Positions 5,015-47,871 are shown, numbered from the stretch's first letter. The stretch is 57,495 bases of DNA from Deltaproteobacteria bacterium (GCA_031278475.1 JAITKK010000225.1:1-57495); one strand, 5' to 3'. A program made the numbers and translations. Notes: a model not told the origin generated them from the letters alone.

Positions 5015-6112
5015 TCAGCCGGGAGGGGGGCAGAGCAGGCTAAGGAGGGTTATGTAGTGCCTTATGGGGCGTTCCGTGAAATTCACGGACAACATGGAGA
5101 ACAACGGGGTTTCAGGGCAGGACCACTTCAGCCAGCCTGAGGGGGAGTGCGCTATCTTTATGGTCAGGCCTTTCGAGTCGCTGTGTTTTTGCAAATCGTT
5201 CGTCCACTTGGGGGCAGAGTAGGAGGGGTGCCCTCCGCTGTCCAGGGCTATGAGAAGCGTGTCGGCCGATGGGTAGAGCGACCTGCCATTGCGGTCCCAC
5301 CAGTGGGAAAAGCACCTGAGCGGGAAAAATGGCAGATCGATTGTGGTGAAGATGCCGTTCGCGAAAGGCTCGTTTTTATGCTTTCCGACAAAAAACCCGA
5401 AGTCCCCCAATGATTGGACAAAGGTGAGGCGATCGGCCGCCCCGCACTTCCTGTTGGGTGTCCCGGAAAGATGCGCTATGGGCTGCTCGTTTGCGCATTC
5501 CCCCAGGAGCCTTGTGTGGATGCTTGCGACAGGGGAGCCGGAGTTTATCGTCTCAGCCACAAGCTTTCCCATGTATTCGAATTTCCTGTCCGCGAAAGGC
5601 CCTTCGCAAGACGGGCTCGCCAAAGGATCCCCGCAGGGGCGGAAGCCCTGCGAGCGCAGGGTTTTGCGCACAAGGGCCGGATCCTTCGGGAAGTTCCTGG
5701 CCACCATGTCCTCCGCCAGCCCCGCCGAGTCCTTGGAGGTCCACCGCAAGGGGGATTCGTCCCAAGAGCCCGGCCCCATAAGGGAAACAAGTGTCTCCTC
5801 GAAGCCAGGGCTAATTCCCGCAACGGACGCTTCCAAGCCCGCTGGCGCACCCTCCCCAGGATCGTTTTCATAGGAATCCGGTGCGGAGAGCATCGTTTCC
5901 TTGTCTATGGCATTGGGGGGGTACTTGGTGGCATCGTGAACCAAGCCCTTGCCGTTGGGGCCCAAAAGGGCCGCAAGGGCCCCTGCCCACCGCAGAAGGG
6001 TGGGCTTGTCGAACATCCTGTCAATTACAGGGCTGTAGCGTTTGAACTGACGGTGTGAGGGACGCTTGTCCATATCGTTTCGGTTTTGCTTTCGCACCCT
6101 GCCGGATGGCAA
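5015..6112 (-). mobile_element. ISAzo13-family (Rhodopirellula-type DDE) transposase-like gene, highly divergent, possibly an inactive relic
   Basis: 365-aa ORF (TTG at 6112, first ATG at 6073). It has recognisable family blocks: PLRWTSKD (cf PLRWTCKS), YPSADTLLIALDSGGHP (cf YP.A..LLI.ADGGGSN), PKWTNDLQ (cf LWK.ELQ) and SGWLKWSCPETPLFS (cf GTSKWNKIEHRLFS). The block expected to hold the first catalytic Asp reads SIHTRLL (cf SVDTKKKE). The C-terminus is shorter than I recall for the family. No terminal inverted repeats were identified by eye. Confidence 0.6.
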
Positions 6113-6362
6113 AGGCGGCTTGAGGTATTTACGTATTTGAATTTCCGCATCAATCCCATATTAGTGCGCATTATGGGTCTTTATGCGGAATAATGGGTTT
6201 TATGGCCAAGCTACCGGCATCCCCGCATGTTGCAATGTTTGCGTATCCTTTGCGAAAGCATGCCATGGCAAGTTAATATTTTGGCAAAACAGGGCTGAGC
6301 CCTCGGCGAAGCCTTTTCCATTCACGGTAATACTCATTACGATCGCATGAGGCGCACGCTAT

Positions 6363-6433
6363 GAGCGACATTGCATTTGACTCACAAAGCATATGACTGA
6401 CAAAGCATAAGAGCGACAAAGCATATGTGTGAC
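6363..6433. repeat. tandem repeat, 16-bp unit GASYGACAAAGCATAW, about 4.4 copies
   Basis: Read directly: gagcgacattgcattt / gactcacaaagcatat / gactgacaaagcataa / gagcgacaaagcatat / gtgtgac. Confidence 0.85.
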
Positions 6434-6621
6434 CCATGCAGGTACAGTACAAGCCAGTAATCAATATTAGCCGATATTATGTAAAATTACGCAATACCAA
6501 GTTAATTTATTGGCAAGACAAATCACCCGAATGGGCATGGATCCCTACCAACGAGGGAGCCACAACAGCATATCACATTATCGAAAATTTCCAATAACTT
6601 AATCGCCTGCACCGGGATTCC

Positions 6622-6700
6622 GCCCTGAGGGCATTATGCCATGATGCCCTGAGGGCATGTTGCCATGATGCCCTGGGGGCATGTTGCCATGTCCCTGAGC
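6622..6700. repeat. tandem repeat, 24-bp unit GCCCTGAGGGCATKTTGCCATGAT, about 3.3 copies
   Basis: Units at 6622, 6646 and 6670, then a partial copy. Read directly from the sequence. Confidence 0.9.
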
Positions 6701-6867
6701 CTTTCATTGAGGCAGGGCTATACTCTTAGCCTAAGTGCGCAATTATAGGCTTTTATGGCATGCTTATGTCGTATTTTGGAAATTATCGTATAAATTAAAA
6801 AGCCCCCGCATGACTGGATCAAGGGGGAGCGCATTTGTCAGGGCCAAGCATCCATCAATCTGGTTCG

Positions 6868-6944
6868 CCCTTGCAAAACCCTTACTAAACCCTTGCGTAA
6901 CCCTTGCAAAACCCTTGCATAACCCTTGCATAACCCTTGCGTCA
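6868..6944. repeat. tandem repeat, 11-bp unit CCCTTGCRWAA, 7 copies
   Basis: cccttgcaaaa / cccttactaaa / cccttgcgtaa / cccttgcaaaa / cccttgcataa / cccttgcataa / cccttgcgtca. Lies just downstream of the aroK/aroB stop. Confidence 0.9.
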
Positions 6945-7001
6945 AGCGCATGTCTTGGCAGGGCTTGGGTTGTGCGGTGTTTTCAGTTTGTTGGGGCTAT
7001 C

Positions 7002-8870
7002 TTAGAGGTAGGGCCGCAGGGCCTTGCTGGAACACTCAATAGCCAGGTCCTTGGCAACCCCTATGAGTTCCTCGGGGCTTATTTTAAGCAGCACGGGATC
7101 CTCGGGGTTGCGCAGCCCCACGAACTTGAGCGCGCCGTCCCTAATTTTTTTGTCCTTCAAGAGCAGCGCCTTGGCCACGTCGTCTTCCGGGTTTTCGGGA
7201 AAAGTACCACCCGCGAGGGTGAGGCATACGGAGCGGGCCTGATGCGCGAAGCGGTGCGGCAGGCCCAGGGCCCTCTCGGAGTAGAGGAGGCTTACGGCCA
7301 TGCCGTGGGCCACGGCCCTGCCGTGGCTCACGGCATCTGTCCCACCCGCATGGGCGCCCTCCACCACGTGGCCCCAGGTGTGGCCAAGGTTTAAGCGGTC
7401 GCGGATCCCCAGGTTCTCCCGGAAGTCGGCCGCCACCACCTCCATCTTGAGTGTGGCCGAGCGGAAGGCTATTCCAGTAAGAAGGGGGACGTCGTTCGTG
7501 GGGTGTTGTTCCAAGGGATCCAGCCCTTCCCAGCGCGGGGATTCGGGCCCCGGCCGGGCTTTTGGAATCCTCAGCAGGGCCCCCAGGTGGGAGCTTATCG
7601 TCTCCGATAGGCCCTTGTCGGAAAGCAGCCCCATCTTGTACGCCTCGGTCAGCCCCTCGGAGAGCAGGGCCTGGGGAAGGGATCCCAGGGTCTCCCCGTC
7701 CAGCCACACGTCCTGGGGCAGGTAGAAGATCCCCAGCTGGTTCTTAGCGCCGCCGAAGTTCACCGCGGCCTTGCCGCCAATGGCCGCGTCCACCGCGCCC
7801 AACAGGGTGGTGGGCGACAGTATCAGCCTTATGCCCCGCTTGAAGAGCCCCGCGGCCAAGGCCCCAAGGTCGGTAAGGCTCCCGCCGCCCCTGGCCACCA
7901 GGAAGTCGGAGCGGTCGAAGGGGCCGTCGGCCAGGGCGGAAAGCAAGCCCTCCAGTTCCCGGAGGTTCTTGGCCGCCTCGCCCCTGGCCTTGGTCCGGTA
8001 GACAACGGCCCTGTCCGGGCCAAGGGCCCTTAGGAGGGCCCCCTCCTCGAAGGGCAGGGCGTGGTCCAAAAGAACGAGGCACTTATGGCCGGAGGTGGCA
8101 TCCGCTATCTTCGAGAAAAGGCCATCCTTGGTGAGGAAGGTCCTTATGGAGCACCGGGACTCGCCATAGGCTGAAAAATCGCCAACCCTCGCAACCAGTG
8201 TGGAGCCTATGGAGGCGGCTATCGTTTCCGGGGGGCTGGTCAGCTCCAGCGGGAGGCCGAGGCCCTGGTAGGAGGGGAGCCTATCCTTGAAGAGTTTCCC
8301 GAAGGCCTTGAAGTCCAGGGCGAGAGGCCTGAGGCTCGCGGGATCCCCGCCCTTCGCCTCCCTTGACACCCTCTCCCAGAGAAGCCCCGGATCGTCCGTC
8401 CTGAGGTAGAAGACAAGCCCGTTTGCCTTCAGGGCCTCCCTGGTCTTGGGATCCATGGTGGCCCCGCCCCCAAGGGCCACCACCTTGGGGGCGCCCTTGG
8501 CCGTTAAGAGCCCCGATATCCTCTTTGCCTCCCTTTCGCGGAAGTCCGGCTCCCCAAGGGAGGGGTCCTTGAAGACCGCCGGGATGGGCATCCCGTACTC
8601 GCGCTCAAGGGCCTTGTCGAGGTCCAAGAATTCCCTCCCGAGGAGTTTCGCGAGCGCCCTTCCCACGCTTGTCTTCCCCGAGCCCATGAAGCCTATCAGG
8701 AAGAGGTGCCGCCCCAGCTCGGGTGGCAGCGCGCCCTCTTTGGGCGGGGCCTTGGGACGGGGGTTCTTCCCTGGGAATAGCATTTTGCTCCGATATCGGG
8801 GTTTGTTGTGCGTGTTTTCCGCGACGGTCGCGACAGCCGCAGTATTCGCGATGGTCGCGACAGCCGCCAT
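7002..8870 (-). CDS. aroKB: bifunctional shikimate kinase / 3-dehydroquinate synthase (fusion)
   Basis: N-terminal P-loop shikimate kinase block FLIGFMGSGKTSVGRALAKLLGREFLDLD. It is followed by a DHQ synthase-like domain (GGGSLTDLGALAAG, AAIGGKAAVNF, LNLGHTWGHVVE, SHGRAVAHGM). The start is uncertain: ATG at 8870 or ATG at 8783 (MLFPGKN). The first about 20 codons lie in a 24-bp duplication (AAVATIANT/AAVATVAEN). Confidence 0.85.
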   Translation of the reverse strand: MAAVATIANTAAVATVAENTHNKPRYRSKMLFPGKNPRPKAPPKEGALPPELGRHLFLIGFMGSGKTSVGRALAKLLGREFLDLDKALEREYGMPIPAVFKDPSLGEPDFREREAKRISGLLTAKGAPKVVALGGGATMDPKTREALKANGLVFYLRTDDPGLLWERVSREAKGGDPASLRPLALDFKAFGKLFKDRLPSYQGLGLPLELTSPPETIAASIGSTLVARVGDFSAYGESRCSIRTFLTKDGLFSKIADATSGHKCLVLLDHALPFEEGALLRALGPDRAVVYRTKARGEAAKNLRELEGLLSALADGPFDRSDFLVARGGGSLTDLGALAAGLFKRGIRLILSPTTLLGAVDAAIGGKAAVNFGGAKNQLGIFYLPQDVWLDGETLGSLPQALLSEGLTEAYKMGLLSDKGLSETISSHLGALLRIPKARPGPESPRWEGLDPLEQHPTNDVPLLTGIAFRSATLKMEVVAADFRENLGIRDRLNLGHTWGHVVEGAHAGGTDAVSHGRAVAHGMAVSLLYSERALGLPHRFAHQARSVCLTLAGGTFPENPEDDVAKALLLKDKKIRDGALKFVGLRNPEDPVLLKISPEELIGVAKDLAIECSSKALRPYL

Positions 8871-8912
8871 AGGCGGGTGCTTTCCGGCATGCCCTGAGGC
8901 AGGGGGTCCCTC

Positions 8913-9740
8913 TCAGCCGAGGCCTTTCACGAAGGGTTCGATCCCGATGTCGTCCCTGCCCGTCCAGCGGATGAAGGATAGCCTGGCCTGGTGGGCCAGC
9001 ATGGACCTCCCGTCGGAAAAGGAGGCCCCGGCCTTCTTTGCGAGGTTCTCGAAGAGGTTGGGCTTGCGCCCATAGTTGATGTCCACGACAAGGCCGCCCT
9101 TGGCCACCCGCAGCATCGGGAGGAAGTCCCCCAGTTCCGCCTCGGTGGATACGGAGCTTGCGTTCACAACCAGTGGGAAGGGCCCGAGGCTTGGGGGTTC
9201 GCTTCCTTTGGGGAACACATCGGCCCTGAAGAAGGCCGCGAGCGTCTTGGCCCTGGAGTAGGTCCTGTTGAGGATATAGGCGTGGAAGCCCTTCGCCTTG
9301 AGGGCGTGGAGCACGGCGCGGGCGGCCCCGCCCGCGCCGAGGACCAGGGCGGGCGAAGGCTCGATCCCCTGCAGGTAGGCCTCGGCGAAGCCCGGGGCGT
9401 CCGTGTTGTCGGCCAGCCAGTCCTGATCCCTCTGGGGCACCCCCTCGGCGATGACCCTTGCCAGGGTGTTCGCGGCCCCTATGGCACGGCACTCGGGGGT
9501 GCAGCCCTGGCTGTGGGCCAGGGCCGCCTCCTTCAGGGGGGCGGTCACGTTCAGGCCGTGGAAACCCAGCTTCCAGAGGGCGGGGAGTATTGAGTGGAGA
9601 TCGGATTCCTTGGCGCGGAGTGGCAGGTAGTGGCCATGGATGCCGCAAGCGGCGAGTGCCTGGGCGTGCATGTCGGGCGACGGGGAGAGGAAGACCCGCT
9701 CGTCGCCAAGAAGGCCCAGCAGCATGGGTTTTCCGGGCAT
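8913..9740 (-). CDS. aroE: shikimate dehydrogenase
   Basis: ORF 8913..9755 containing GLNVTAPLKEAA, AIGAANTL and VLGAGGAARAV (Rossmann). The ATG at 9740 overlaps the aroA stop (TGATG at 9738..9742), suggesting translational coupling. Confidence 0.85.
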   Translation of the reverse strand: MPGKPMLLGLLGDERVFLSPSPDMHAQALAACGIHGHYLPLRAKESDLHSILPALWKLGFHGLNVTAPLKEAALAHSQGCTPECRAIGAANTLARVIAEGVPQRDQDWLADNTDAPGFAEAYLQGIEPSPALVLGAGGAARAVLHALKAKGFHAYILNRTYSRAKTLAAFFRADVFPKGSEPPSLGPFPLVVNASSVSTEAELGDFLPMLRVAKGGLVVDINYGRKPNLFENLAKKAGASFSDGRSMLAHQARLSFIRWTGRDDIGIEPFVKGLG

Positions 9741-11005
9741 CAGCCCTCCTTCCACAGAAGGGAGAGATCCCTGTGGAAGCCAGGGTAGGAGATGGGGATG
9801 GAGTCATCCCCCAGTATCGGGGTCTTCGCCCCGGCGGCCACCAAGGCGAGGGTAAGGGTCATGGCCAGGCGGTGGTCGCCCCCTGAGTCAAGGGATGCGG
9901 GTATTATGAAGGAGGTAGGGCCGTTTATGTGCAGGTCGTCGCCCTCTATCCATACCCTCGCGCCAAGGGCCCCCAGCTGGTGGCGTATGCTCATGAGCCG
10001 GTCGGTCTCCTTTATGCGCAGCTCGTCCACCTTCCTGAACACGGTGGTGCCCTCGGCCTGGGTCGCGGCCAAGGCGAGTATCGGGATCTCGTCGATAAGC
10101 GACGGGACGTCGGATGCCAGGACCTCGGTCGCGCGGAGCCTTCCCTGGTAGCTGACCGTGACATCCCCTATGGGCTCGGGCGTGTCGGAGCTCATGGTGA
10201 CGGACACCTTAGCCCCCATGCGCTCCAAGGCCCTCAGGAAGCCGGTGCGGCCCGGGGCCAGGAGCATGTTTTTGGCGGTGATGTCGGAGTTTGGGATGAC
10301 TGCCGCCATGCACAGGAAGAAGGCGGCCCCGGAGGGGTCGGCCGGGCAGGGGAAGCTCCCGCCCAGTTGCAGGGTCCCCGGGTAGACCGTGTGCCTTAGC
10401 CCGTCGGATGCCACATGGGCCCCGAAATGGGAAAGGAGCCTTTCCGTGTGGGTCCTGGTCATGGCGGGCTCGGTGACGGTGGTGGGGCCGTCCTTGGCCG
10501 AGAGCCCCGCCAGGAGCACGGCACCCTTCAGCTGGGCCGAGGCGCCCTTCATGGCGTAGTCGATGGGGGAGAGGATGGCCCCGGATATCCCGAGCGGGGG
10601 TTTGCCTGCCAAGGTGCCCACCTTCGCGCCCATCTGCCTCAGGGGCTCGGCCACCCGCTCCATGGGCCTGCGCCTCAGCTGCGGGTCGCCGTCAAGGACG
10701 TAGTCGCCCGGGATGCCCGCGAGTATCCCGGACAAGAGCCTCATGGTGGTCCCAGAGTTCCCGCAGTCAAGCTCGTAGTCCTTGCCTTCCTGGATCGCCC
10801 TGGAAAGCCCCCTTATGCGCAGCCCGTCCAGCCCCTCCTCGGCCCAGCCCCCCAGCTCCCTGAAGACCTTGAGGCTGGAGGCCACGTCCTCGCAGTCGGA
10901 GAGCCCGGTCACGAGCATCTCGCCCTCTCCCAGGATGGGGAAGAGTACCAGCCTGTGGCTTATGGACTTGTCCCCGGGTGGGGTGAACTGACCTATTAAG
11001 GGCAT
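9740..11005 (-). CDS. aroA: 3-phosphoshikimate 1-carboxyvinyltransferase (EPSP synthase)
   Basis: ORF 9740..11104. The conserved start MPLIGQFTPPGDKSISHRL is at the ATG at 11005. Also has LDCGNSGTTMRLL and RIKETDRL motifs. Confidence 0.93.
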   Translation of the reverse strand: MPLIGQFTPPGDKSISHRLVLFPILGEGEMLVTGLSDCEDVASSLKVFRELGGWAEEGLDGLRIRGLSRAIQEGKDYELDCGNSGTTMRLLSGILAGIPGDYVLDGDPQLRRRPMERVAEPLRQMGAKVGTLAGKPPLGISGAILSPIDYAMKGASAQLKGAVLLAGLSAKDGPTTVTEPAMTRTHTERLLSHFGAHVASDGLRHTVYPGTLQLGGSFPCPADPSGAAFFLCMAAVIPNSDITAKNMLLAPGRTGFLRALERMGAKVSVTMSSDTPEPIGDVTVSYQGRLRATEVLASDVPSLIDEIPILALAATQAEGTTVFRKVDELRIKETDRLMSIRHQLGALGARVWIEGDDLHINGPTSFIIPASLDSGGDHRLAMTLTLALVAAGAKTPILGDDSIPISYPGFHRDLSLLWKEG

Positions 11006-23169: not shown

Positions 23170-23342
23170 GCCGCAAGCCTCAAGGTCCCTTTGCCCCAAG
23201 AAGCCAGCAACCGGCCCCTGGCCTTTGGCTCCGGCGCCGTGGAAAGCCCAGTTTTTTGTTGACATCCTGGACGGCCTTTGAGTAGAATGCCCTTTGTTTT
23301 TTGCGGCGTGGGCAATCCCGCCGCTTCCTCGAAGGAAGACGT

Positions 23343-23418
<76 letters not shown>

Positions 23419-23482
23419 ACCTTAAAACACCCTGCGAATCCGAAATAGGCGAGAACCCGCGATCGCCCCGCATTGGCCGCTG

Positions 23483-23515
23483 TCCCGGAAACTTTGTGGT
23501 TTTCGGGATTTTTTT
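23483..23515 (+). terminator. intrinsic terminator downstream of tRNA-Asn
   Basis: Stem TCCCGGAAA / TTTTCGGGA (9 bp with one G-U), 8-nt loop, followed by a T7 run. Confidence 0.7.
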
Positions 23516-23900
23516 GTCCCTTTTGTGTCCTTGGGGCCTTTGGGCCGGGAGGCCATGCCTTTATAAAACACCAATATATGTGTACAAGAAAATAATTTTA
23601 ACTAATGTGCCATCCGGGCTGGCAAGCGGGCACTCACACTTTGCCTCTTTCACATCTTGGTCGGCGCCAGGGCCGGGATACGGGTTTTGGGGCCTTAAGC
23701 CCTGGCTAAGCCAGGGCAAACGGGAAATCGCGGGCCTTGGGGTCGTCTGCGTGGGTTGTGAGGACGGGGGCTAAAAGGGGAGGGGCTTCCTTAGCAAGCG
23801 CTTAGGGCGCAGGGCTTGCTTTCCGGGGCCCAACAATTGCGGGAATGCCAATGTTTAGGGGGAATTAGGGGGGGTTAGGGCGAATAGGAGGGGCGGCCTT

Positions 23901-25994
23901 TTAGTGTTTGATGTCGATGAACATCAGGGATTCGTTTCCGAGGATGTCTATGACCTTGACCGCTACTTTTTTGACACTTGCCGGGGAGTAGTTGAAAAAA
24001 GGGCTTTGGAGTTCTATTTTGCGGTTTTGCTTGAATCTGAAGGCATGCCAAGTGTTGGTGAAAAAGAAGTCTTGGGCGAAGGATCCTTCAAAATCGCCAT
24101 TGCCTTTTAAGGCCTTGCCATTTTGCTTGCAACCGATATCTATCGCCCAATAGTCGATCCAATCGCTCCAGCTTTTGGTAAGTTTTTCGGTTTTTAGCCT
24201 GCCTTCTGCATCCTTGGTAATCTTTACCACTTGGCCCTTATGGACCTTTATCAAGGTTGAGTTATTCCTAAGATCGGAGGGATGTATATTGTCCTGCGAG
24301 TAAAAGCATGAATAGTCGGTAAGCTCGATTGAAAGGCTATTTTTCTTATAATGCGGTACTGCATTAATGAAAGATACCTCTCGGAAATACGGTTTGTAAT
24401 CCTTGTGATGGTATTTACGGAATAAATCCTGCGGTATGAGCTTGGCTGCCAAATCCACGCCTTTGGCAGTCATCTCATCGTATATTTTCGGGAATAACCC
24501 TAAACCATATTCAAAGGCAAGGACATCGATCTTATCTATACCGATCTTTACGCACTCTTTTAGTATTTTTTGAAAAATGTCCTTCGTGAGCGGGGTACCT
24601 AAGTCCGCTACATAGACCACCCTGTCGCCCTTGACTGCTTGGAACATGCCCAAATCGCTGGTATTTTCGGCAAGGTACGCATCCAATATCGCGCTAAGGG
24701 CCCTTTTCTTGCGCTTTTCTATCAGCTTTTCCTCTTTTTGCTCAAGCGGGTTGGTGTTTGCTTGGAAAAAAAGGGTTTGAGGGCGATTGTCCAATTTAAG
24801 GATCTCGAATGGTCTGTAAGGGATATTTTCTTTTCTAAACTCCTCATGGAGCGCAAGTATTCTCTTTCTTGCGACATGTATTGCGAATTTGCCCAAATCG
24901 TTCCCAATCCACTTGCGGCCCATGGTCTCAGCAACCGCGGCAGTGGTCCCAGACCCAATGAAAAAGTCGGCAACAATGTCGCCGGGCTTTGAGGACATCT
25001 CGATTATCCGTCTTAAGATTTCCGCAGGTTTTTGGGTCGGGTAATTCAGGTTTTCCGGGCCCCTTACAACGGGAGCTGCGGGAACTATCCAAACATCGTC
25101 CGCCATCTTGTCTTCGCAGATGTCATATATTAAGTTCCCATTATCGTCGCGCTCGTAGCCCCTCCACTTTTTTAAGGCCGCATTCCATACTTTCCTGGCC
25201 ATCTTCCTGGGCACGTCTCTGAGGATTTTCAAGGTGTTGTATTGCTTTTTGGCTTTGTTCTTTGCATAAAAGAACACATCGTCATGGTTTTGGGGAAGTC
25301 GTGATATACCTGACGGTATCTTGTCGGGGTAATACCATATGATATCGTTTATGAAATTCCCCGGATCAAAGATTTCGTCCAGAATCTCCCGAATATGGCC
25401 ATTAATGTGCCAGTCGCAATGCAGATACAGACTCCCATCCTCACTTAGCAGCTCATGCATGAGCCGCAAGCGTTCGTAAATCATGTTAAGGAAGGAATCT
25501 TTTCCGTAGCCCCAGATGTCGCTGTATGCCAGTTCAGAGAGGACATTTGGGTCTTTTTTGACTTTTTCGTCGCCAATTTCGATGCCAATCGTGAAATTCA
25601 CGCCCACGTCGAAAGGGGGATCGATGTAAATTAGCTTTATGCCACCATGTTTTTTGATTTCTTCCCTAAGGGGTCCGCTCTTCAACGATGAGATGACAGC
25701 TTTGTTGTCTCCTTGGATAAGTTTGTTCGCCCAGCCGTCGTCCTTCAGCGGATTCTTGGGGGGATCATCGAACAGGGTGCGTTTCGCTATGTCTTTTCCC
25801 AAGAAGGAATCCGATTGCTCTATGAACTGAAAAGGAAAAACCTTTTTGTAAGTTTTCTTGTTTTTCCCGTTCCAAACCAATTCCACTTCTTTATTGTTCT
25901 CGAACAGGATGTAGCGATACTTATCCGGCAATGGTATGCGATGTCTGAGGCAATATGTTATCGCCTTTATGTCATCGTCGGAGAGTTTTATCAT
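23901..25994 (-). CDS. orphan beta-class N6/N4 DNA methyltransferase, type III Mod-like, with long C-terminal extension
   Basis: 697 aa. N-terminal ELVWNGK box. Motif IV IYIDPPFD lies about 210 aa before motif I DFFIGSGTTAAVAETMGRKWIGNDL, which is the beta order with a central TRD. About 300 aa follow the catalytic core. AT-rich codon usage, no Shine-Dalgarno, no adjacent Res/endonuclease gene. Confidence 0.9.
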   Translation of the reverse strand: MIKLSDDDIKAITYCLRHRIPLPDKYRYILFENNKEVELVWNGKNKKTYKKVFPFQFIEQSDSFLGKDIAKRTLFDDPPKNPLKDDGWANKLIQGDNKAVISSLKSGPLREEIKKHGGIKLIYIDPPFDVGVNFTIGIEIGDEKVKKDPNVLSELAYSDIWGYGKDSFLNMIYERLRLMHELLSEDGSLYLHCDWHINGHIREILDEIFDPGNFINDIIWYYPDKIPSGISRLPQNHDDVFFYAKNKAKKQYNTLKILRDVPRKMARKVWNAALKKWRGYERDDNGNLIYDICEDKMADDVWIVPAAPVVRGPENLNYPTQKPAEILRRIIEMSSKPGDIVADFFIGSGTTAAVAETMGRKWIGNDLGKFAIHVARKRILALHEEFRKENIPYRPFEILKLDNRPQTLFFQANTNPLEQKEEKLIEKRKKRALSAILDAYLAENTSDLGMFQAVKGDRVVYVADLGTPLTKDIFQKILKECVKIGIDKIDVLAFEYGLGLFPKIYDEMTAKGVDLAAKLIPQDLFRKYHHKDYKPYFREVSFINAVPHYKKNSLSIELTDYSCFYSQDNIHPSDLRNNSTLIKVHKGQVVKITKDAEGRLKTEKLTKSWSDWIDYWAIDIGCKQNGKALKGNGDFEGSFAQDFFFTNTWHAFRFKQNRKIELQSPFFNYSPASVKKVAVKVIDILGNESLMFIDIKH

Positions 25995-26021
25995 TGCTGT
26001 TGGGTTATTTATTGTTAAGGG

Positions 26022-26978
26022 TTATTTGTCTTCTCTGGGTGGCATGAATCCCTTTAGCAAAACCGATATGTTCGACAGCTTTGCCTGGATGTCATCGAGA
26101 ATCATCAGTTCAGAGTTGTTGATTTCCGTCTTGTGAAGGTGCTTTGTCAGCTCCTCCAAGCGCTTGTATAGCGTGTCTGCGTTGCGGAGCAACGACTTCT
26201 CGTGCCGTTCAAGCATGCTCCGGCCGCTCCTGTCACGCCCAGGCGTGGGGGTAATCTTCTTCTCGATTTTTTTTGATATTTTTTCCTTCAATTCCTCGAA
26301 TTTCCTCCGTCTTTCCTCTTTGTCCTTGATTTTGGAAAGATGCAGAAGCTTGGCCCCTGACCAAAGGTTGGACTTGATAGCCTCTTTTTTGATCTCTTCC
26401 TCGAGGGTGCTGATCTTGAGCAGCTCCGAGATGTAGGTCTCGGAAAGGTTGACTTTCTTGATGAGCTGCCTTTGCCTTACTTTTTCGTTCTCCCCCTTCA
26501 TTTTGTGCAAGAGTTTCGCGACCGCCAATGCCTTCTCGATTGGCAGCAGATCCTCCCGGTGGATGTTCTGGGTGAGGGAGATTATTTCGTAGTCATCGGA
26601 TTCCAGGGCTACTATCCTGCATTTTATTTCGGTGAACTCCAATTCCTTGAGGGCCCTCCACCTACGCTCGCCGTCCACAATTACGTAGTGATCGGGCTTG
26701 CTGTGGTCATGCCTGACAAGGATGGGTTCAAGCTGTGAAATGGTTTCGATCGAATGCTTCAGGTTATCCAAATGCACCTGATCGAAATATTTCCTGGGCT
26801 GTCCTGGATCCGGGGAGATTTTGTCAATCTCGATTGTTACGATTTGATCGTTTTTTCCGGTTGTGGTCATAGTTGTTGGTTGCTTCGTTTTTGTTTTTGG
26901 GTTGACTGTAAAGCCTTTTTGCTGATTCGTCAGCGTCAATCGCTTAAATTTTCTAATTCGTGTCAGGCGCTGACCCAC
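26022..26978 (-). CDS. ParB/Srx-family protein (ParB N-terminal domain with GERRxRA box, HTH, K/E-rich coiled-coil tail)
   Basis: IDKISPDPGQPRKYF...LEPILVR...YVIVDGERRWRALKEL...LTQNIHREDLLPIEKA matches the ParB N-domain boxes. Start ambiguous: GTG at 26978 or ATG at 26870. The stop is 27 nt upstream of the methyltransferase start on the same strand. Confidence 0.8.
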   Translation of the reverse strand: MGQRLTRIRKFKRLTLTNQQKGFTVNPKTKTKQPTTMTTTGKNDQIVTIEIDKISPDPGQPRKYFDQVHLDNLKHSIETISQLEPILVRHDHSKPDHYVIVDGERRWRALKELEFTEIKCRIVALESDDYEIISLTQNIHREDLLPIEKALAVAKLLHKMKGENEKVRQRQLIKKVNLSETYISELLKISTLEEEIKKEAIKSNLWSGAKLLHLSKIKDKEERRRKFEELKEKISKKIEKKITPTPGRDRSGRSMLERHEKSLLRNADTLYKRLEELTKHLHKTEINNSELMILDDIQAKLSNISVLLKGFMPPREDK

Positions 26979-27517
26979 ATGGTAAGGCTTGAATACCGTG
27001 TGGGAACTTCGGAGCTACGAAGAATCCAATAGTTCCAAAGCCGATGTACCACAATACATAGCACAATAAAGAATCTTAATAAAGCAAAATTTTGATCCTG
27101 TCAATACTCTCATCCCAAGCGTGCTATCACTACGCTTCATAACTACATCCCTTTTCTTGACGAAGCTTAGCTTCCCGAAAATCCGCATATCTCTTGTTGT
27201 TTGGTGCAACACACTCATCGGCTCCGCTTTTCCCTACGTCTTCCGCTAGGCATCGTGTGCCTGGCCGCTCAAGTGCAATCTAAGGTTCGTAAAAAATAGC
27301 TTTCTTCAGTCTTTTGGACAATGCCGTCCTCCTGGCAAAACGCACAAACAAATCCCATCGTAATTTCGTCTTGCGCAAAAACGATGGTACCGAATGCATG
27401 CTTGGGTACATTTTGTGCCTTTTTTAAATGAAATCCCCCCTATTCATGGATTGATGACCAAGCGGGCCATCGTGAGCAGAAGCGTTTTTGGGTCTGTGCC
27501 GGGGTGCCGCCATGCCG

Positions 27518-28005
27518 TCGGATGCCGGCCTTGCGGTGGATGTTGGCTTGCCACCGGTTGCCCAATTGCCGCCGGGATACTGGCTTTCCGCCAGTTTCCT
27601 GCTTGCCGCCGGGATACTGGCTTTCCTCCGGTTGCCTACTTGCCATCGGATGCCGGCTTCCCGGCAGTTGCCGACTTGCCGCCGGATGCTGGCTTGCATC
27701 GGAAGCCGGCCTGCCGCCGGATGCCTGCTGGCCGCCGGGATGCTGCCTTGCCGTCGGATGCCGGCTTCCCCTCGGATGTCGGCTTGGTTCCGTATGCTGG
27801 GTTGCTTCCGGATGCTGGCTGGCCGCCGAAATGCTGCCTTGCCGTCGGATGCCGGCTTGGCATCGGATGCTGGCTTAGCGCCAGTTGCCGGCTTTCCGTC
27901 GGATCCCGACTTGCCGTCGGATGCCGGCTTGTCGCTTGGTGCTGGCTTGCCGCCAGTTGCCTACTTGCCGCCGGATGCTGGCTTGCCGCCGCAGTTTGCC
28001 CCTGG
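27518..28005. repeat. degenerate tandem iteron array, about 27 units of 17-19 bp, consensus CGGATGCYGGCTTGCCGY (variant CAGTTGCCNACTTGCCGC)
   Basis: Read unit by unit from the sequence. It is GC-rich inside an AT-rich region. Five of the six frames are open across it, but unit-length variation shifts the repeat phase within every ORF. Confidence 0.9.
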
Positions 28006-28538
28006 TGGGGATGGCATTTATGGATCCATTATGCTTTATCCAGTTCGTTATTAGAAGTATTTTTTTTCGTCTAACGCAAGTCCCGCCACAAGCGGCGAAA
28101 TGCCCTATTTCCTTTGTATAATGCGGCAAAAGGCCATCCAACAGGGGGTTTTGGGGCTGTCGTTATGCCACTATTATTCATAAAATTTATTATGACTACC
28201 ATATATTGTAGCTAAATGACTTTTTCACGTCATTATTTTTTTTGCAACCCCGGGCATGGGGCCAGTTGAGGGCCCAAAAAGCGCCTTGAGGCCCCTTTGT
28301 CGTGGCCGCAACGGCTCCTCTGAATAACAACTTTGGCCCAAGAAGGCCTAAGAAGGCCAAAGAAGAGCCAAAGATCCAGGAAAGGTCAGAAAGGCCCCTG
28401 CAAGGCCCCTGGAAGGCCTTTAAAGGGCCCTACAGACACAGAGGCAGCCATTCCCATGGGATTTTATTTGCCACCTCTCGCCTCCCCATGGAAAGCCATT
28501 CCCAGTGAGCTGCCAAGGGCCATTCCCAAGAAAATAGA

Positions 28539-28567
28539 TTGACATCAATTTTATGCTGCAATAATAT
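28539..28567 (+). promoter_or_regulatory. near-consensus sigma70-type promoter (TTGACA - 17 nt - TAATAT)
   Basis: TTGACA at 28539..28544, a 17-nt spacer, TAATAT at 28562..28567. No ORF follows. A hairpin terminator lies about 90 nt downstream. Confidence 0.45.
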
Positions 28568-28573
28568 TTTGGG

Positions 28574-28686
28574 AGCACTTGGATTTTTTTTAGAGCCCGG
28601 TCCCTTATCTTAGATATTTTGGGATAAGCCCATTCTTTGGTGAAAAGCCGCCACAAAAAAAACCGCCGGTCTTGAAGGCGGTTTTG
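28574..28686 (+). ncRNA. candidate small RNA (about 110 nt) bounded by promoter and hairpin
   Basis: Runs from the predicted start just after the -10 box to the hairpin at 28659..28685. There is an internal hairpin CTTATC...GATAAG. No start codon or ORF. No known RNA family recognised. Confidence 0.3.
28655..28686. terminator. bidirectional intrinsic terminator-like hairpin
   Basis: AAAACCGCC - ggtcttgaa - GGCGGTTTT, with an A8 run upstream. It therefore reads as stem plus a T8 run on the minus strand and stem plus TTTT on the plus strand. Confidence 0.7.
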
Positions 28687-29248
28687 CTGAAAGTCTTGTT
28701 AGAGTGCCCGTCCTCATGTCACGGAAAACTTCCCGAGGCTCTTGGGGTCCATTTTGTCGCGCGCAAGCTGTTTTTGGTTTTTTTTATTATCTTTCTGTCC
28801 GCGGACTTTCTAAAGGCGAAAGCAAAGCGTTCCCCCTTTTGCTTGCAACTGGCACTTGCGTCGCCTGTCGCGCTTTGCGGACTTCGCAGGCTTTGCGGCT
28901 AATTTTCCCGGCATGGCTCGATTGGGTTCTGGGCGTGCCGTCAGAGGGAAAATCCCGCCTTTGGGGGCTTTGGCCGGACGGCACCCCGAGCCGCCCCATG
29001 CATGCTCGGGCCAGGGAGGGGCCTTGCGGGTCTTTTGTCAAGTTTGATCCAATATAAAACCCAGCTGCGCAAAAGCCTCTTCGCCCAAACGATGCCATAT
29101 GCGCGAAGGAGGGGCTTTTCTTGGCGGGGCTTGGCTTTTGTGGCCCCTTCCGCCGCTTGACTATGGGCCCCCGCACTGTACAATCGTCACAATAAGGATG
29201 CGGCCAAGGTGACTCCCCGGGGGTTTCCGCATCCAAGGAGTAAGTGAT

Positions 29249-30049
29249 TTGCGACAAGATTTGGCACAATCAGGCGAGGGCTCCCCGACCGTACCCAAAG
29301 CCATATCAAACCCAAGGGAATTCTGGGACAGGAAGGCCGCCACCTTCCCAAGATACTCACCTGGCGAGGATACCTACGAGGCTTCCCTGCTGTCGCTTGC
29401 CAGTGAAAACGGGGCGTCCATGCGGAACGCCGTGGCCCTCGACGTGGGCTGCGGCACCGGCATGTTCACCATCCGCTTGGCGATGGAGGCCAGGAAGGTG
29501 ATAGCCGTGGACATATCCGAAAGGATGCTGGACATCCTGCGGGAGGATGCCCGAAAGGCGAGGCTCAGGAACATAGTGGCCGTGAATTCCGACTGGCTGG
29601 ACTTCCGGGTGCCGGTAAGGCCGGACATTGTCTTCTGCTCCATGAGCCCGGCCATAGGCTCGGAAGAGGGCCGCGGGAAGCTTGTCGGCCTGGCCGGGTC
29701 CCAGGTGGTGGCGGTGGTCCCCACCGAGAGGTTCCAGTCCCAGATAATGGCCGGTCTCTACGACAGGTACTCCGTGACCCCGACCTACCAGCGGGAGGGT
29801 CCCACCCTGGGGGCATGGCTTGCCGGCCGCGGGATACGGCCCACCTCCGTTCCGGTGACGGGCAAATGGCGGGTCCCCCAAAAGCTCGCGCATATCAAGG
29901 ACAGCGCCCTCTGCATGCTCCACAACTTCGGGGTGGAACCAGACGAAGGGGAGTTGGACGAATATCTTGAGGGTTTCAGGGGCACGGACGGGATGTACCT
30001 CGAGATAACCGACTACAAGCTGGAGATGCTTCTCTGGCACAATCCCTAA
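29249..30049 (+). CDS. class I SAM-dependent methyltransferase (small-molecule type)
   Basis: TTG start 8 nt after AAGGAG. Motif I VALDVGCGTGMFTIRLA, then VIAVDISERML. GC-rich, host-like codon usage. Confidence 0.8.
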   Translation: MRQDLAQSGEGSPTVPKAISNPREFWDRKAATFPRYSPGEDTYEASLLSLASENGASMRNAVALDVGCGTGMFTIRLAMEARKVIAVDISERMLDILREDARKARLRNIVAVNSDWLDFRVPVRPDIVFCSMSPAIGSEEGRGKLVGLAGSQVVAVVPTERFQSQIMAGLYDRYSVTPTYQREGPTLGAWLAGRGIRPTSVPVTGKWRVPQKLAHIKDSALCMLHNFGVEPDEGELDEYLEGFRGTDGMYLEITDYKLEMLLWHNP

Positions 30050-30164
30050 AGGAATCCCGCGTCATTTGGGCATGCATTCCCTTCCCAGCCTGCAGGCCGA
30101 AGCCATTCCCAATCCCGATTCCCAATCCCGTGCGGCGCACGCGAGACCTGCCGTAAACCGGCCC

Positions 30165-30205
30165 CAAACCGGCCCCAAACCGGCCCCAAACCGGCAGCCA
30201 ACCTA
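30165..30205. repeat. tandem repeat, 11-bp unit AAACCGGCCCC, about 3.7 copies
   Basis: Units at 30165, 30176 and 30187, then a partial copy. Confidence 0.9.
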
Positions 30206-30340
30206 TCGGCCGCTCCGTCAATGGCTCGGTGGCTTAGGCTATCCGCGCGCCCTGGGCAAAGCCTTCAAAATCAACGATTAAGCCCCATGCGAGGGCCAGG
30301 TGGCGCTTCCCGGCAAAGGCAAAAACCCGCAGCCGGACGC

Positions 30341-30373
30341 AAAAAACCCGCCGGACTAAGATCCTGGCGGGTT
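30341..30373 (-). terminator. intrinsic terminator downstream of tRNA-Lys
   Basis: On the minus strand it reads AACCCGCCAGG-loop-CCGGCGGGTT followed by a T run, about 44 nt after the tRNA 3' end. Confidence 0.75.
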
Positions 30374-30416
30374 GTCTGTTTAGGGGCTCGGCACCTTAAG
30401 GTGCCGCATTTGACCG

Positions 30417-30491
30417 TGGTGCGCCATGGAGGGCTCGAACCTCCAACCTAATGATTAAGAGTCATTTGCTCTACCATTGAGCTAATGGCGC
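30417..30491 (-). tRNA. tRNA-Lys (anticodon CTT), CCA encoded
   Basis: Reverse complement: GCGCCAT TA GCTC AATGGTA GAGC A AATGA CTCTTAA TCATT AGGTT GGAGG TTCGAGC CCTCC ATGGCGC A CCA. All stems are Watson-Crick. Confidence 0.93.
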
Positions 30492-31004
30492 GAAACTTGT
30501 TTGGCGGGGGCTTTTTGGCCCCCTTGGGAGCGGCAAGCAGGCCCGGGCCTTGGCCGGGGCGACCAAGGCCCGGGCCTTTCGACGGAAGCAGAGTATAGAG
30601 CATTTCGGGCCCTCTGTAAACAGCAATTTTGAGGCCGCGTAAAAGCATGCGGGGATCATGCGGGTGCCCTGGAAACGGACATGCCCTTCCGCCTTCCGCC
30701 TTCCGCCTTCCGCCCAAGGTGGCGCCGCTTGCGGGATCCTAGCCTCCCTTACAGGATTTGGGAGCTTTTCGGCAAAAAAGGGACTAAATAAAGTATAATG
30801 ATTGGCGCCCGGCCGCCAGGCAGGCGGTAGGACCTTGCGGGCAGCCGAAATCCCTAAAAATCCCGATACAGATCGTGTTGCCAGGAACTGTATACACTAT
30901 ATTGTATATAGATTTATAATATTGGCATTTTTAGGCATTTCGCATTATCAGGCATGCAAAGAACCCCACCGGCGTCCCGAGCCCGGGAGCCGGGCTCGGC
31001 TAGT

Positions 31005-46869: not shown

Positions 46870-47871
46870 GTCGGTCCTTTCGCTTGCGTTGCCTTTGGCC
46901 TTTGGCCAAGGATTTTTATATGGTAAAAGCCCTATCAAACCAATTGCACACAGTACCACAAAAGGGGCGGCTATGCCAGTTGCCTGCCATTTAAAGCGCC
47001 GCGGCCAAACCTGGGGGAGCTAGGCAAAGGGTCTTGGCCATGGCAACGGCCAAGGCCCGCGGGCAAGGCCAACGAGTACGGCAATCGCTAGGCCTGTGGC
47101 CTTGGATTTGTGCGGGGTTCAAGGAAGGCTTTTAACAATTCTTTGATAATTTATTGGGTTCTTGGACAATTCAAAAAATTAATTATGCCAAAGGGCTTGC
47201 GGCCTAAAATGTGCTCCGGGCTTATGGCAAATGTTTTGCTTGTTTTGGGTAAGTGCGACACTTGCGCTAATTTGACGCAATTTTGCGTAAGCGCGGATTC
47301 GTTCCCATGCTGAAGGCGGACCAAGAGCCGCAAATCGAATAGGGCCAAAAAGCAAAAAACCAAACTTGGGTGATTTGCCTCAAAAATGCCGATAGCGCAT
47401 GATATTTTGCAATCCAATCAAGCGGTTTGCGAGATGCAAAACATGATGCTAAACATGATGCAAATCATTGTGCAAGATATAATGCATAATAATATGCAAA
47501 ATATTGACATATTGATGAAACGCTAGAAATACCATAGGCTAAAAATTATTATAATTGGCAAATATGTTCAGTGTTTATGGTTTTTTTGGTATTTTCCAAA
47601 CCTTTTAAAGAGGTTCCTAAATGATTTTCATAAACGCCAAAGGCAGAAATTGTAAGCGCACAAAAGTCTAAGATATTCACAAATTACCCGAAATTAGGGA
47701 CAATTACAGGCCCGATTGATTTCACGCAATGTCGCATTCAAGGCTCTGTTATACGTGTGATCCAATAAAAACGCATATTATGGAATAATACGCCCGAAAC
47801 AATAGTAGGCGATGATTTCCGCTGAGATTATTTGCTCGATTGAGAACGGGCAAAAGCCAGCCGCAAAACGA

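Follow-up and report, generated by a model that had tools for sequence, protein, structure and literature searches.

What does a ParB-family protein do on a stretch of chromosome where no ParA is found? The question is raised by a 57,495-nt contig of a Deltaproteobacteria bacterium (GCA_031278475.1, JAITKK010000225.1:1-57495), referred to here as the window, in which a ParB-like gene and a DNA methyltransferase (methylase) gene lie on the minus strand between a tRNA-Asn and a tRNA-Lys gene (Table 1). A preliminary description of this DNA interpreted the region as a foreign island and offered three explanations for its two long genes: a) a remnant of a phage or conjugative element; b) a module in which ParB recruits the methylase; and c) a restriction-like or defence pair in which ParB is the nuclease effector. 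All three take ParB and the methylase to be dedicated to each other, and for that reason they fit the comparative data poorly. The finding itself is real, with the greater interest lying in ParB rather than in the ParB-methylase pairing: ParB is the constant element of the family and the neighbouring gene varies. As judged from the sequence and its relatives, the most likely role of ParB is to regulate genes locally and not to take part in chromosome partition or restriction.

The ParB protein and its upstream palindrome

The ParB gene encodes a protein of 318 aa if read from a GTG at 26978, or of 282 aa if read from an ATG at 26873. The GTG start is preferred because it agrees with the lengths of the orthologues and with the distance at which they carry the palindrome described below. 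The protein is made up of a CTPase N-domain, a ParB helix-turn-helix (HTH) and a two-helix C-terminus; the HTH match to PF17762 (9.2e-05) scores 23.0 bits versus a cut-off of 22.6. Boxes I-III (QPRK, GERRWRA and NIHREDL; NIHREDLLPIEKA) are invariant or near-invariant in 24 family members and align with the matching motifs of Helicobacter Spo0J and Geobacillus Noc, in agreement with the earlier assignment of a ParB-like gene with CTP-switch boxes. The predicted CTP-binding boxes are intact; the nucleoside triphosphate specificity of ParB-type proteins is not reliably predicted by sequence (PMC12704722).

An AlphaFold (AF2) model of ParB, with a predicted local distance difference test (pLDDT) score of 80.8, has Noc, ParB and KorB as its best PDB matches, and the best database matches of the protein include PDB entries 4umk and 7nfu. 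The model helices within residues 110-206 superpose on Noc and ParB. At its end the model predicts two long helices, a helical hairpin, rather than the usual C-terminal dimerisation domain. The Noc model TIGR04285 is matched with an E of 3.6e-30 and 105 bits, short of its equivalog cut-off of 315, and partition/Noc/KorB-type models score far better than DpdB (E ~1e-33 versus ~1e-3). The only PADLOC defence match, to DpdB, was marginal (E 1.2e-3) and was set aside. The N-termini of family members are highly variable and have no evident membrane-targeting helix. In one paralogue (L010) the N-terminal coding part contains a 42-bp tandem repeat (9707-9952, 5.9 copies) encoding a serine/aspartate-rich repeat.

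About 33 close relatives of ParB are present in 5.8 billion proteins, nearly all of them from termite-gut "Deltaproteobacteria" metagenome-assembled genomes (MAGs) or metagenomes. None were found among 72,556 plasmids (PLSDB), 50,697 phages (INPHARED) or IMG/VR, where even the best matches do not exceed ~40% identity or cover more than 52% of the protein, and the derivation from a phage or conjugative element proposed earlier is weakened by this absence. Two family members (L011 and L012) are located on termite-gut contigs with a G+C content (GC) of 30-33% that were binned as Streptococcaceae or Lactobacillales; these could be mis-binned contigs or could represent a low-GC donor lineage of the family.

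A feature absent from the earlier reading is the 16-bp palindrome upstream of ParB. It reads CTTCGTAGCTCCGAAG on the ParB strand and surfaced in a search for palindromes common to the orthologous loci. The same or a near-identical site is found 5' of ParB in L001, L170 and L172, and across the 57 kb window no other sequence matches the consensus within 3 mismatches. In 20 of 22 family loci a site of the general form NTTCG-N6-CGAAN is found 30-270 bp 5' of ParB. When TTCG-N5-7-CGAA was counted near the ParB start, these 20/22 loci stood against 3/157 distant ParB loci (Fisher p = 2.5e-21; background 0.065 per kb), the 22 loci being not all independent and ~16 of them distinct. The remaining two are one sequence seen twice, which carries a one-mismatch copy, and one of the three distant positives (L018) is really a truncated family member.

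Every paralogue carries a variant of the site at the same place: CTTCGGAACTCCGAAG, CTTCGGCGCGCCGAAG, GTTCGGAGCTCCGAAC, GTTCGGTAACCGAAC (twice) and TTTCGACGCGTCGAAA (twice), the last belonging to the divergent second ParB of L014. The site sequence shifts between paralogue groups (CTTCG..CGAAG, GTTCGGTAACCGAAC and TTTCGACGCGTCGAAA) alongside changes in the HTH segment. At L014 two ParB paralogues are placed back to back ~2.4 kb apart (6183-7442, minus strand; 9818-10864, plus strand), each preceded by two copies of its own palindrome, TTTCGACGCGTCGAAA or GTTCGGTAACCGAAC; the pair is also found in L174.

Beyond the palindrome of the window is an AT-rich leader in which one block, AAAATTTTGCTTT, is common to the window, L001 and L172. 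No promoter upstream of the palindrome could be assigned with confidence. A partner resembling KorA was also looked for, and no conserved small open reading frame (ORF) was found upstream of ParB across the loci.

Methylase and other genes downstream of ParB

The methylase of the window shows the beta-class order of motifs, DPPF at residue 125 preceding FIGSGTT at residue 345. The PADLOC profile MTase_III (PDLC03633) matches it at full length (residues 37-691, E 1.5e-74), and its PDB matches include EcoP15I Mod and MboIIA. The DPPF motif suggests N6-adenine methylation, and the C-terminal extension of ~320 aa is presumed to be the target-recognition region. The enzyme is classed as an orphan member of a type III Mod family, as the preliminary description had it. 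The family has >8000 full-length relatives. A 43%-identical homologue from Rhizobium etli (L169) directly precedes a ResIII gene, and another homologue (L167) stands alone. A 46%-identical homologue in a Magnetomoraceae MAG (L168, 8001-18106) is followed by a full-length PD-T4-4_A / PDC-M47A-like ATPase and adjoins Mu-like phage genes (Gam, Mor and GemA). Since the family pairs elsewhere with ResIII or an ATPase, or stands alone, the methylase is regarded as cargo with no obligate ParB partner. A Res remnant in the window was considered and rejected, as tblastn with the R. etli Res and with a Type ISP enzyme gave no match; the R. etli (L169) Res likewise had no tblastn match in L001, L170, L172, L007, L167 or L168.

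ParB and the PF01555 domain are encoded by two separate ORFs and not by a fusion polypeptide. The ParB gene ends with TAA, and exactly 27 nt separate this stop from the methylase start on the same strand with no GGAGG between the genes; the gap and the missing ribosome-binding motif had both been reported correctly. The 3' side of the methylase gene is followed by 480 bp of non-coding DNA and then tRNA-Asn.

Two other termite-gut MAG species carry the same locus. In L001 (ParB ~59% and methylase 47-48% identical to the window) the order is tRNA-Lys, SAM-methyltransferase (an S-adenosylmethionine-dependent enzyme), ParB, methylase 4 nt later and tRNA-Asn, which is the order of the window. In L007 the SAM-methyltransferase, ParB, tRNA-Asn and the downstream host genes occupy the same locus, the host genes being 76-85% DNA-identical to 22.4-23.0 kb of the window, and the methylase is absent. 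The presence of this locus in both species argues that it is not a recent insertion, and the tRNA-bounded island of the earlier interpretation is not supported as a discrete, recent event. The conserved position, of both genes in L001 and of ParB in L007, points to either an old acquisition or a recurrent hotspot.

At two further loci, L170 and L172, ParB is followed by this methylase after 6-9 nt; the ParB-methylase gap across the four distinct loci is 4-27 nt (27 nt in the window and 4-9 nt in the others). The identity ranking L170 > L172 > L001 is alike for ParB and the methylase, which indicates that the two have co-diverged; the pair is kept within one subclade of the ParB family. The site, ParB and the cargo are co-oriented, and together with the 4-27 nt gaps this makes the gene order fit an operon; ParB and the methylase are probably co-transcribed.

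About 16 distinct ParB-family loci were recognized, all of them low in GC relative to their flanks, with no ParA in any annotated locus. One MAG has three family loci, one of which contains two ParB genes. What follows ParB on the same strand differs from locus to locus. In the window, L001, L170 and L172 it is this methylase; in L003, a 1656-aa Type ISP restriction-modification (R-M) enzyme; in L013, two AAA-ATPase_like genes, one with a PDDEXK_9 domain; in L011 and L009, PIN toxins; and in L010, a zeta-toxin fragment and an AAA ATPase. In L014 there are two unknown genes and then, ~5 kb off, a strongly matching Gabija pair (GajA 5e-143, GajB 1e-214). No cargo is present in L005, L007 and L016, where host genes or a tRNA come next. 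Synteny is kept between species not only for the window, L001 and L007 but also for L016 and L017, and the neighbouring tRNA gene is tRNA-Asn in the window, L001 and L007 but tRNA-Met in L005. The contigs L173, L017, L018 and L012 end within a few hundred bases 3' of ParB, and these breaks suggest strain-level variability or repeats at the cargo position.

The neighbourhood survey asked for in the preliminary description therefore does not bear out an always-adjacent pair: the methylase is found at four loci, and other loci have other cargo or none. Paralogues with the same palindrome precede unrelated cargo or no cargo, which speaks against both recruitment of the methylase and a nuclease-effector role as the general function of ParB.

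Composition, borders and repeats of the locus

Table 1. Features of the ParB locus, in window coordinates
Feature	Position	Strand	Evidence and remarks
tRNA-Asn(GTT)	23343-23418	+	ARAGORN; Rfam 67 bits; one edge of locus
Non-coding spacer 3' of methylase	23419-23900		GC ~0.55; hairpin and T-run at 23482-23509 (+) after tRNA
Orphan beta-class N6/N4 DNA methyltransferase, 697 aa	23901-25994	-	PF01555 2.7e-44, residues 119-376 in one stretch
ParA-less ParB-family protein	26022-26978	-	PF02195 4.4e-18; PF17762; TIGR00180 8e-33
16-bp near-perfect palindrome CTTCGGAGCTACGAAG	27007-27022		29 nt upstream of ParB GTG; candidate parS-like site/operator
AT-rich leader, putative promoter region of parB-methylase operon	27023-27400	-	GC 0.42-0.44
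GC-rich tandem array	27505-27993		~27 degenerate 18-bp units, consensus TGCCGGCTTGCCGCCGGA; TRF score 327
Second AT-rich non-coding segment	28050-28700		repeats, promoter-like site, hairpin
Class I SAM-dependent methyltransferase	29249-30049	+	PF13649, PF13847; GC 0.62, GC3 0.80
tRNA-Lys(CTT)	30417-30491	-	ARAGORN, Rfam; other edge of locus

The two tRNA genes are the only ones detected in the window by ARAGORN and Rfam, and their 3' ends face inward across ~7 kb, as had been described. The tRNA-Asn is 100% identical to a tRNA at 3406-3484 of L007 and to the end of L001, and it holds the same position in both; the tRNA-Lys is kept in L001 (7450-7534) at 96% identity. A duplication of the tRNA 3' ends was also checked for, and no att-like repeat of either end was found within 23300-30600. 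The genes around the locus, LspA, an HDOD protein, QueH, a flavin reductase and a Na/H exchanger, are housekeeping genes. With the flanking genes in the window annotated, no ParA, Res, integrase or Rep gene was found in or near the region, so that this set of absences in the earlier description stands.

The foreign look of the core is also upheld. GC is 0.41-0.50 across 23.8-27.4 kb and 0.46-0.49 across 28.0-28.8 kb, against 0.60-0.65 in the flanks, and two long minus-strand ORFs, ParB and the methylase, occupy this low-GC core. The GC at third codon positions (GC3) is 0.56 for the methylase and 0.64 for ParB, above the overall GC of these genes and well below the 0.80-0.89 of neighbouring host genes, a pattern expected of partial amelioration. 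The class I SAM-dependent methyltransferase adjoins ParB in L001 (52% identity) and L007 (45%; tblastn). Being GC-typical and kept in the relatives, it is a host gene outside the low-GC core and was rejected as island content. Its PADLOC match to mad2 was discounted, covering the generic SAM-binding region only. Elsewhere in the window, AT-rich patches (GC ~0.44-0.47) occur at 6100-6700 and 47000-47850; these are intergenic and contain no ORF longer than ~90 aa.

Between ParB and the next gene are 2.3 kb made up of the AT-rich leader, a GC-rich array of 18-bp units and a second AT-rich stretch. The array was previously called an iteron array. The 18-bp repeats are real, with 15 copies within 3 mismatches of the consensus versus 0.22 expected by chance. 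As iterons or a centromere the array is unsupported, there being no Rep gene, no ParB half-site and no similar sequence in the syntenic L001 and L007. Three other roles were considered and rejected: i) a gene, because the reading frame is broken where copies are 73 and 110 nt apart, a 226-aa ORF across the array reading all three phases of the unit; ii) a set of ParB sites, because the units are without a CTTCG/CGAAG half-site; and iii) a feature of the family, because L013 alone has a comparable array (8539-8987, 24-bp x 18.7 copies), of an unrelated unit. Both arrays are ~0.45-0.5 kb long and are located 0.5-0.9 kb upstream of ParB; that of the window is GC-rich between two AT-rich segments.

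The second AT-rich segment contains GGCC-rich units of 10-11 bp (GGCCAAAGAA-type) at 28335-28418 and three copies of GCCATTCCCA at ~28447, 28494 and 28519, upstream of the TTGACA at 28539. Similar AAGGCCAGAAA repeats are present near the tRNA-Lys in L001 (7058-7151). A promoter-like TTGACA-17-TAATAT (28539-28567, plus strand) and a hairpin at 28655-28690 (ACCGCC...GGCGGT) are both there, in line with the promoter/terminator-bounded RNA candidate of the preliminary description. The RNA candidate (28574-28692) was nevertheless rejected: its fold has a z of -1.3 against shuffles, the strong T-tail belongs to the minus strand, opposite to the candidate (8 T, versus 4 T on the plus strand), and it is not kept in L001 or L007. 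Rfam gave the two tRNAs only when the whole window was scanned at the gathering threshold, and nothing in an E-value scan of 26.9-29.3 kb. The hairpin looks like the terminator of a minus-strand transcript from 28.7-29.2 kb, where there is no Pfam-matching ORF. Other short repeats are found in the spacer 3' of the methylase (TTAGGGGGAA-type, 23855-23893) and, as perfect tandem repeats, in the gap between the SAM-methyltransferase and tRNA-Lys (30103-30201; AAACCGGCCCC x 3.7 and ATTCCCAATCCCG x 2).

Proposed local regulation by a ParB clamp and its alternatives

We propose that the locus is an accessory islet, old and by now partly ameliorated, the constant core of which is a ParA-independent ParB and its private 16-bp site. 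The reading we tentatively favour, at a little under an even chance, is that a ParB-family clamp loads at this site and from there regulates both the cargo and the operon of its own gene, in the manner of KorB, VirB or BisD. ParB dimers would load at the palindrome, in the leader of their own gene, close as a CTP-bound clamp and slide into the AT-rich parB-methylase operon, and the sliding ParB would set the transcription of parB and its cargo. Regulation could run in either direction: repression or a roadblock as with KorB, or activation or anti-silencing of AT-rich DNA as with VirB and BisD, here in a host of 60-65% GC. The methylase would be the cargo, and would modify the genome at a short site of its own, either for protection or in an epigenetic role.

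The full set of boxes, the HTH, the private palindrome and the variable AT-rich cargo make the protein resemble recently described ParB-type regulators, and on this evidence we infer that the family belongs with the orphan ParB-CTPase regulators. KorB of plasmid RK2 is a ParB-family CTP sliding clamp that represses transcription over long distances (PMC11790492, PMC13584720). The likeness extends to the ParB_N CTPase and HTH, a short palindrome (here a candidate site) at or near promoters, regulation of accessory-element genes (here proposed) and structural matches to 8qa8 and 8qa9 (E ~1e-9); the sequence similarity is generic only (family profile E 1.8e-13). KorB differs in being plasmid-borne, in functioning in partition with IncC (a ParA), and in having 12 OB sites and the clamp-locking partners KorA and TrbA, whereas the ParB of the window is chromosomal, with no ParA, no conserved partner ORF and apparently one site per gene. 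VirB of Shigella is an anti-silencer of AT-rich DNA (PMC10770331, PMC10653881), BisD of ICEclc activates over long distances (PMC12409273), and HerB is a ParB-like protein of a leading region that reprograms host transcription (PMC13370423). VirB and BisD are orphan ParB-type switches with a specific loading site and kilobase reach on acquired DNA, which is AT-rich for VirB, and the window likewise has an AT-rich ParB and cargo in a GC-rich host. The differences are that there is no sign here of an H-NS-type silencer or of activation, that close homology is lacking and neither protein is among the PDB matches listed for ParB, and that the cargo here is R-M, defence or toxin genes while theirs is virulence or transfer genes. 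The domain order and boxes I-III are shared with ParABS and Noc, whose models give the best database scores, and the putative cognate site is a 16-bp palindrome, as are parS and the Noc-binding site; the absence of ParA, the several paralogues per genome, the low-GC accessory genes, the helical-hairpin C-terminus predicted by the model and the unmet Noc cut-off set the family apart from them.

Several points weigh against this regulatory reading. The palindrome is ~+30 to +50 from the best promoter guess and not over the -35/-10 elements, so that simple operator repression is not evident. The solitary ParB and site units of L005, L007 and L016 mean that the function may be unrelated to the neighbours. 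The association with defence and toxin genes could reflect accessory genes accumulating at shared hotspots (the Gabija pair of L014 is 5 kb off), and the covariation of site and HTH may be phylogenetic inertia. The source organisms are uncultured and known from MAGs, and the comparative inference draws on fragmentary contigs; for many of the loci the contig is short or truncated, and several loci are duplicates of one sequence, leaving ~16 distinct.

Among the alternatives, the one that survives best, though we consider it unlikely, is that the locus is a decayed remnant of a plasmid, integrative and conjugative element (ICE) or phage by tRNA genes, in which a vestigial partition system or centromere and a surviving anti-restriction methylase have no present coordinated function. 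Low-GC genes, the location of several loci by tRNA genes and the toxin genes 3' of ParB at some loci are consistent with it, and in the leading regions of plasmids orphan methylases are found together with ParB homologues and toxin-antitoxin genes (PMC11541004, PMC7736820). Set against this, no locus has an integrase, relaxase, Rep, ParA or att repeat, and the plasmid, phage and IMG/VR collections hold no close homologue. Motifs and site have moreover been kept over ~16 diverged loci, and synteny between species, which argues for purifying selection rather than decay.

A dedicated ParB-methylase module, in which ParB at the palindrome would recruit the methylase to nearby DNA, position it there or activate it, is less probable again. 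It could be a split form of phage and plasmid ParB-methylase fusions, or resemble a phage system in which ParB activates a DNA dioxygenase: prophages often encode fusions of ParB_N to PF01555 (PMC12704722), and in a phage the 5mYOX enzyme is activated on double-stranded DNA by its cognate ParB (PMC13229309). The tight linkage (4-27 nt) and co-divergence at four distinct loci would follow naturally, and, more speculatively, the half-site CGAAG, placed head-to-head in the palindrome, might be a short asymmetric methylase site. The variable cargo of the family behind the same type of site, and the retention of ParB without the methylase at the identical locus in L007, argue against a methylase-specific role; furthermore, the methylase family (>8000) is normally ParB-free, with Res in L169 and alone in L167. 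The fusion proteins of prophages and plasmids share the combination of a ParB fold with an orphan PF01555 methylase (PMC12704722; for leading-region methylases, PMC7736820). In the window the genes are separate, ParB has a full HTH, which the fusion proteins do not, and a C-terminus, its paralogues have other cargo, and the methylase, a type III Mod-like enzyme of 700 aa, comes from a family normally without ParB.

As an R-M enzyme the methylase recalls the EcoP15I-type III systems, with a full-length PADLOC Mod match, EcoP15I Mod among its PDB matches and a homologue that is followed by ResIII. It differs from them in having no Res gene or remnant and in a target-recognition region that would be C-terminal, not inserted between motifs IV and I. 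The controller (C) proteins of R-M systems are small Xre-type HTH proteins of ~80-100 aa with no nucleotide switch. They too are DNA-binding proteins encoded upstream of, and co-oriented with, an R-M gene and have a palindrome 5' of their own gene; the protein here is a 300-aa ParB-type protein, and the relation is one of analogy, not homology.

That the genes form a non-canonical defence or restriction-like system, with ParB as a sensor or a nuclease effector that replaces Res and cooperates with other cargo elsewhere, we regard as very improbable. The majority of the cargo is indeed R-M, defence or toxin genes, ParB/Srx-fold proteins are known in the Dnd, Dpd and GmrSD systems (PMC4619093), and ParB has weak DpdB matches. 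These matches (~1e-3) are set against ~1e-33 on partition/Noc/KorB-type models; ParB is built as a canonical clamp, with an HTH and no added nuclease domain, and has its private site beside its own gene, it is alone in three loci, and the Type ISP and Gabija cargo are self-sufficient. A chromosome-organizing or Noc-like role, in which ParB marks chromosomal sites independently of its neighbours and possibly via a host ParA, is hardly credible even though Noc is among the best structural and sequence matches and solitary ParB and site units are conserved in synteny, given several diverged paralogues per genome with apparently a single site by each one's own gene, low-GC accessory genes in a narrow set of termite-gut MAGs, and a variable N-terminus with no evident membrane-targeting helix.

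Returning to local regulation by ParB, a wider proposal, which is doubtful at present, is that the family constitutes unrecognized gatekeeper modules. A ParA-less ParB-CTP clamp and a private parS-like palindrome would head AT-rich R-M, defence or toxin cargo in GC-rich genomes and control it by sliding in, through silencing, anti-silencing or timed expression, with several orthogonal pairs per genome; in the subclade of the window, methylation of the CGAAG-containing site by a co-transcribed methylase could add epigenetic feedback. If the regulation reading is wrong, what remains is an ordinary orphan methylase beside an orphan ParB. ParB-type CTP switches that function beyond DNA segregation have come to light recently, KorB, VirB, BisD and HerB among them, and nearly every known case is a single protein encoded on a plasmid or ICE of a model bacterium. 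If true, the family would extend these cases to a chromosomal one in multiple copies, with a computationally defined site for each paralogue, a natural set of orthogonal ParB-site pairs, and a previously undescribed link of ParB clamps to R-M, defence and toxin cargo. A 16-bp site, a 300-aa protein and one operon make a tractable system for relating clamp loading upstream of an operon to its transcription, and the family could reveal whether ParB clamps manage the expression of costly foreign defence genes.

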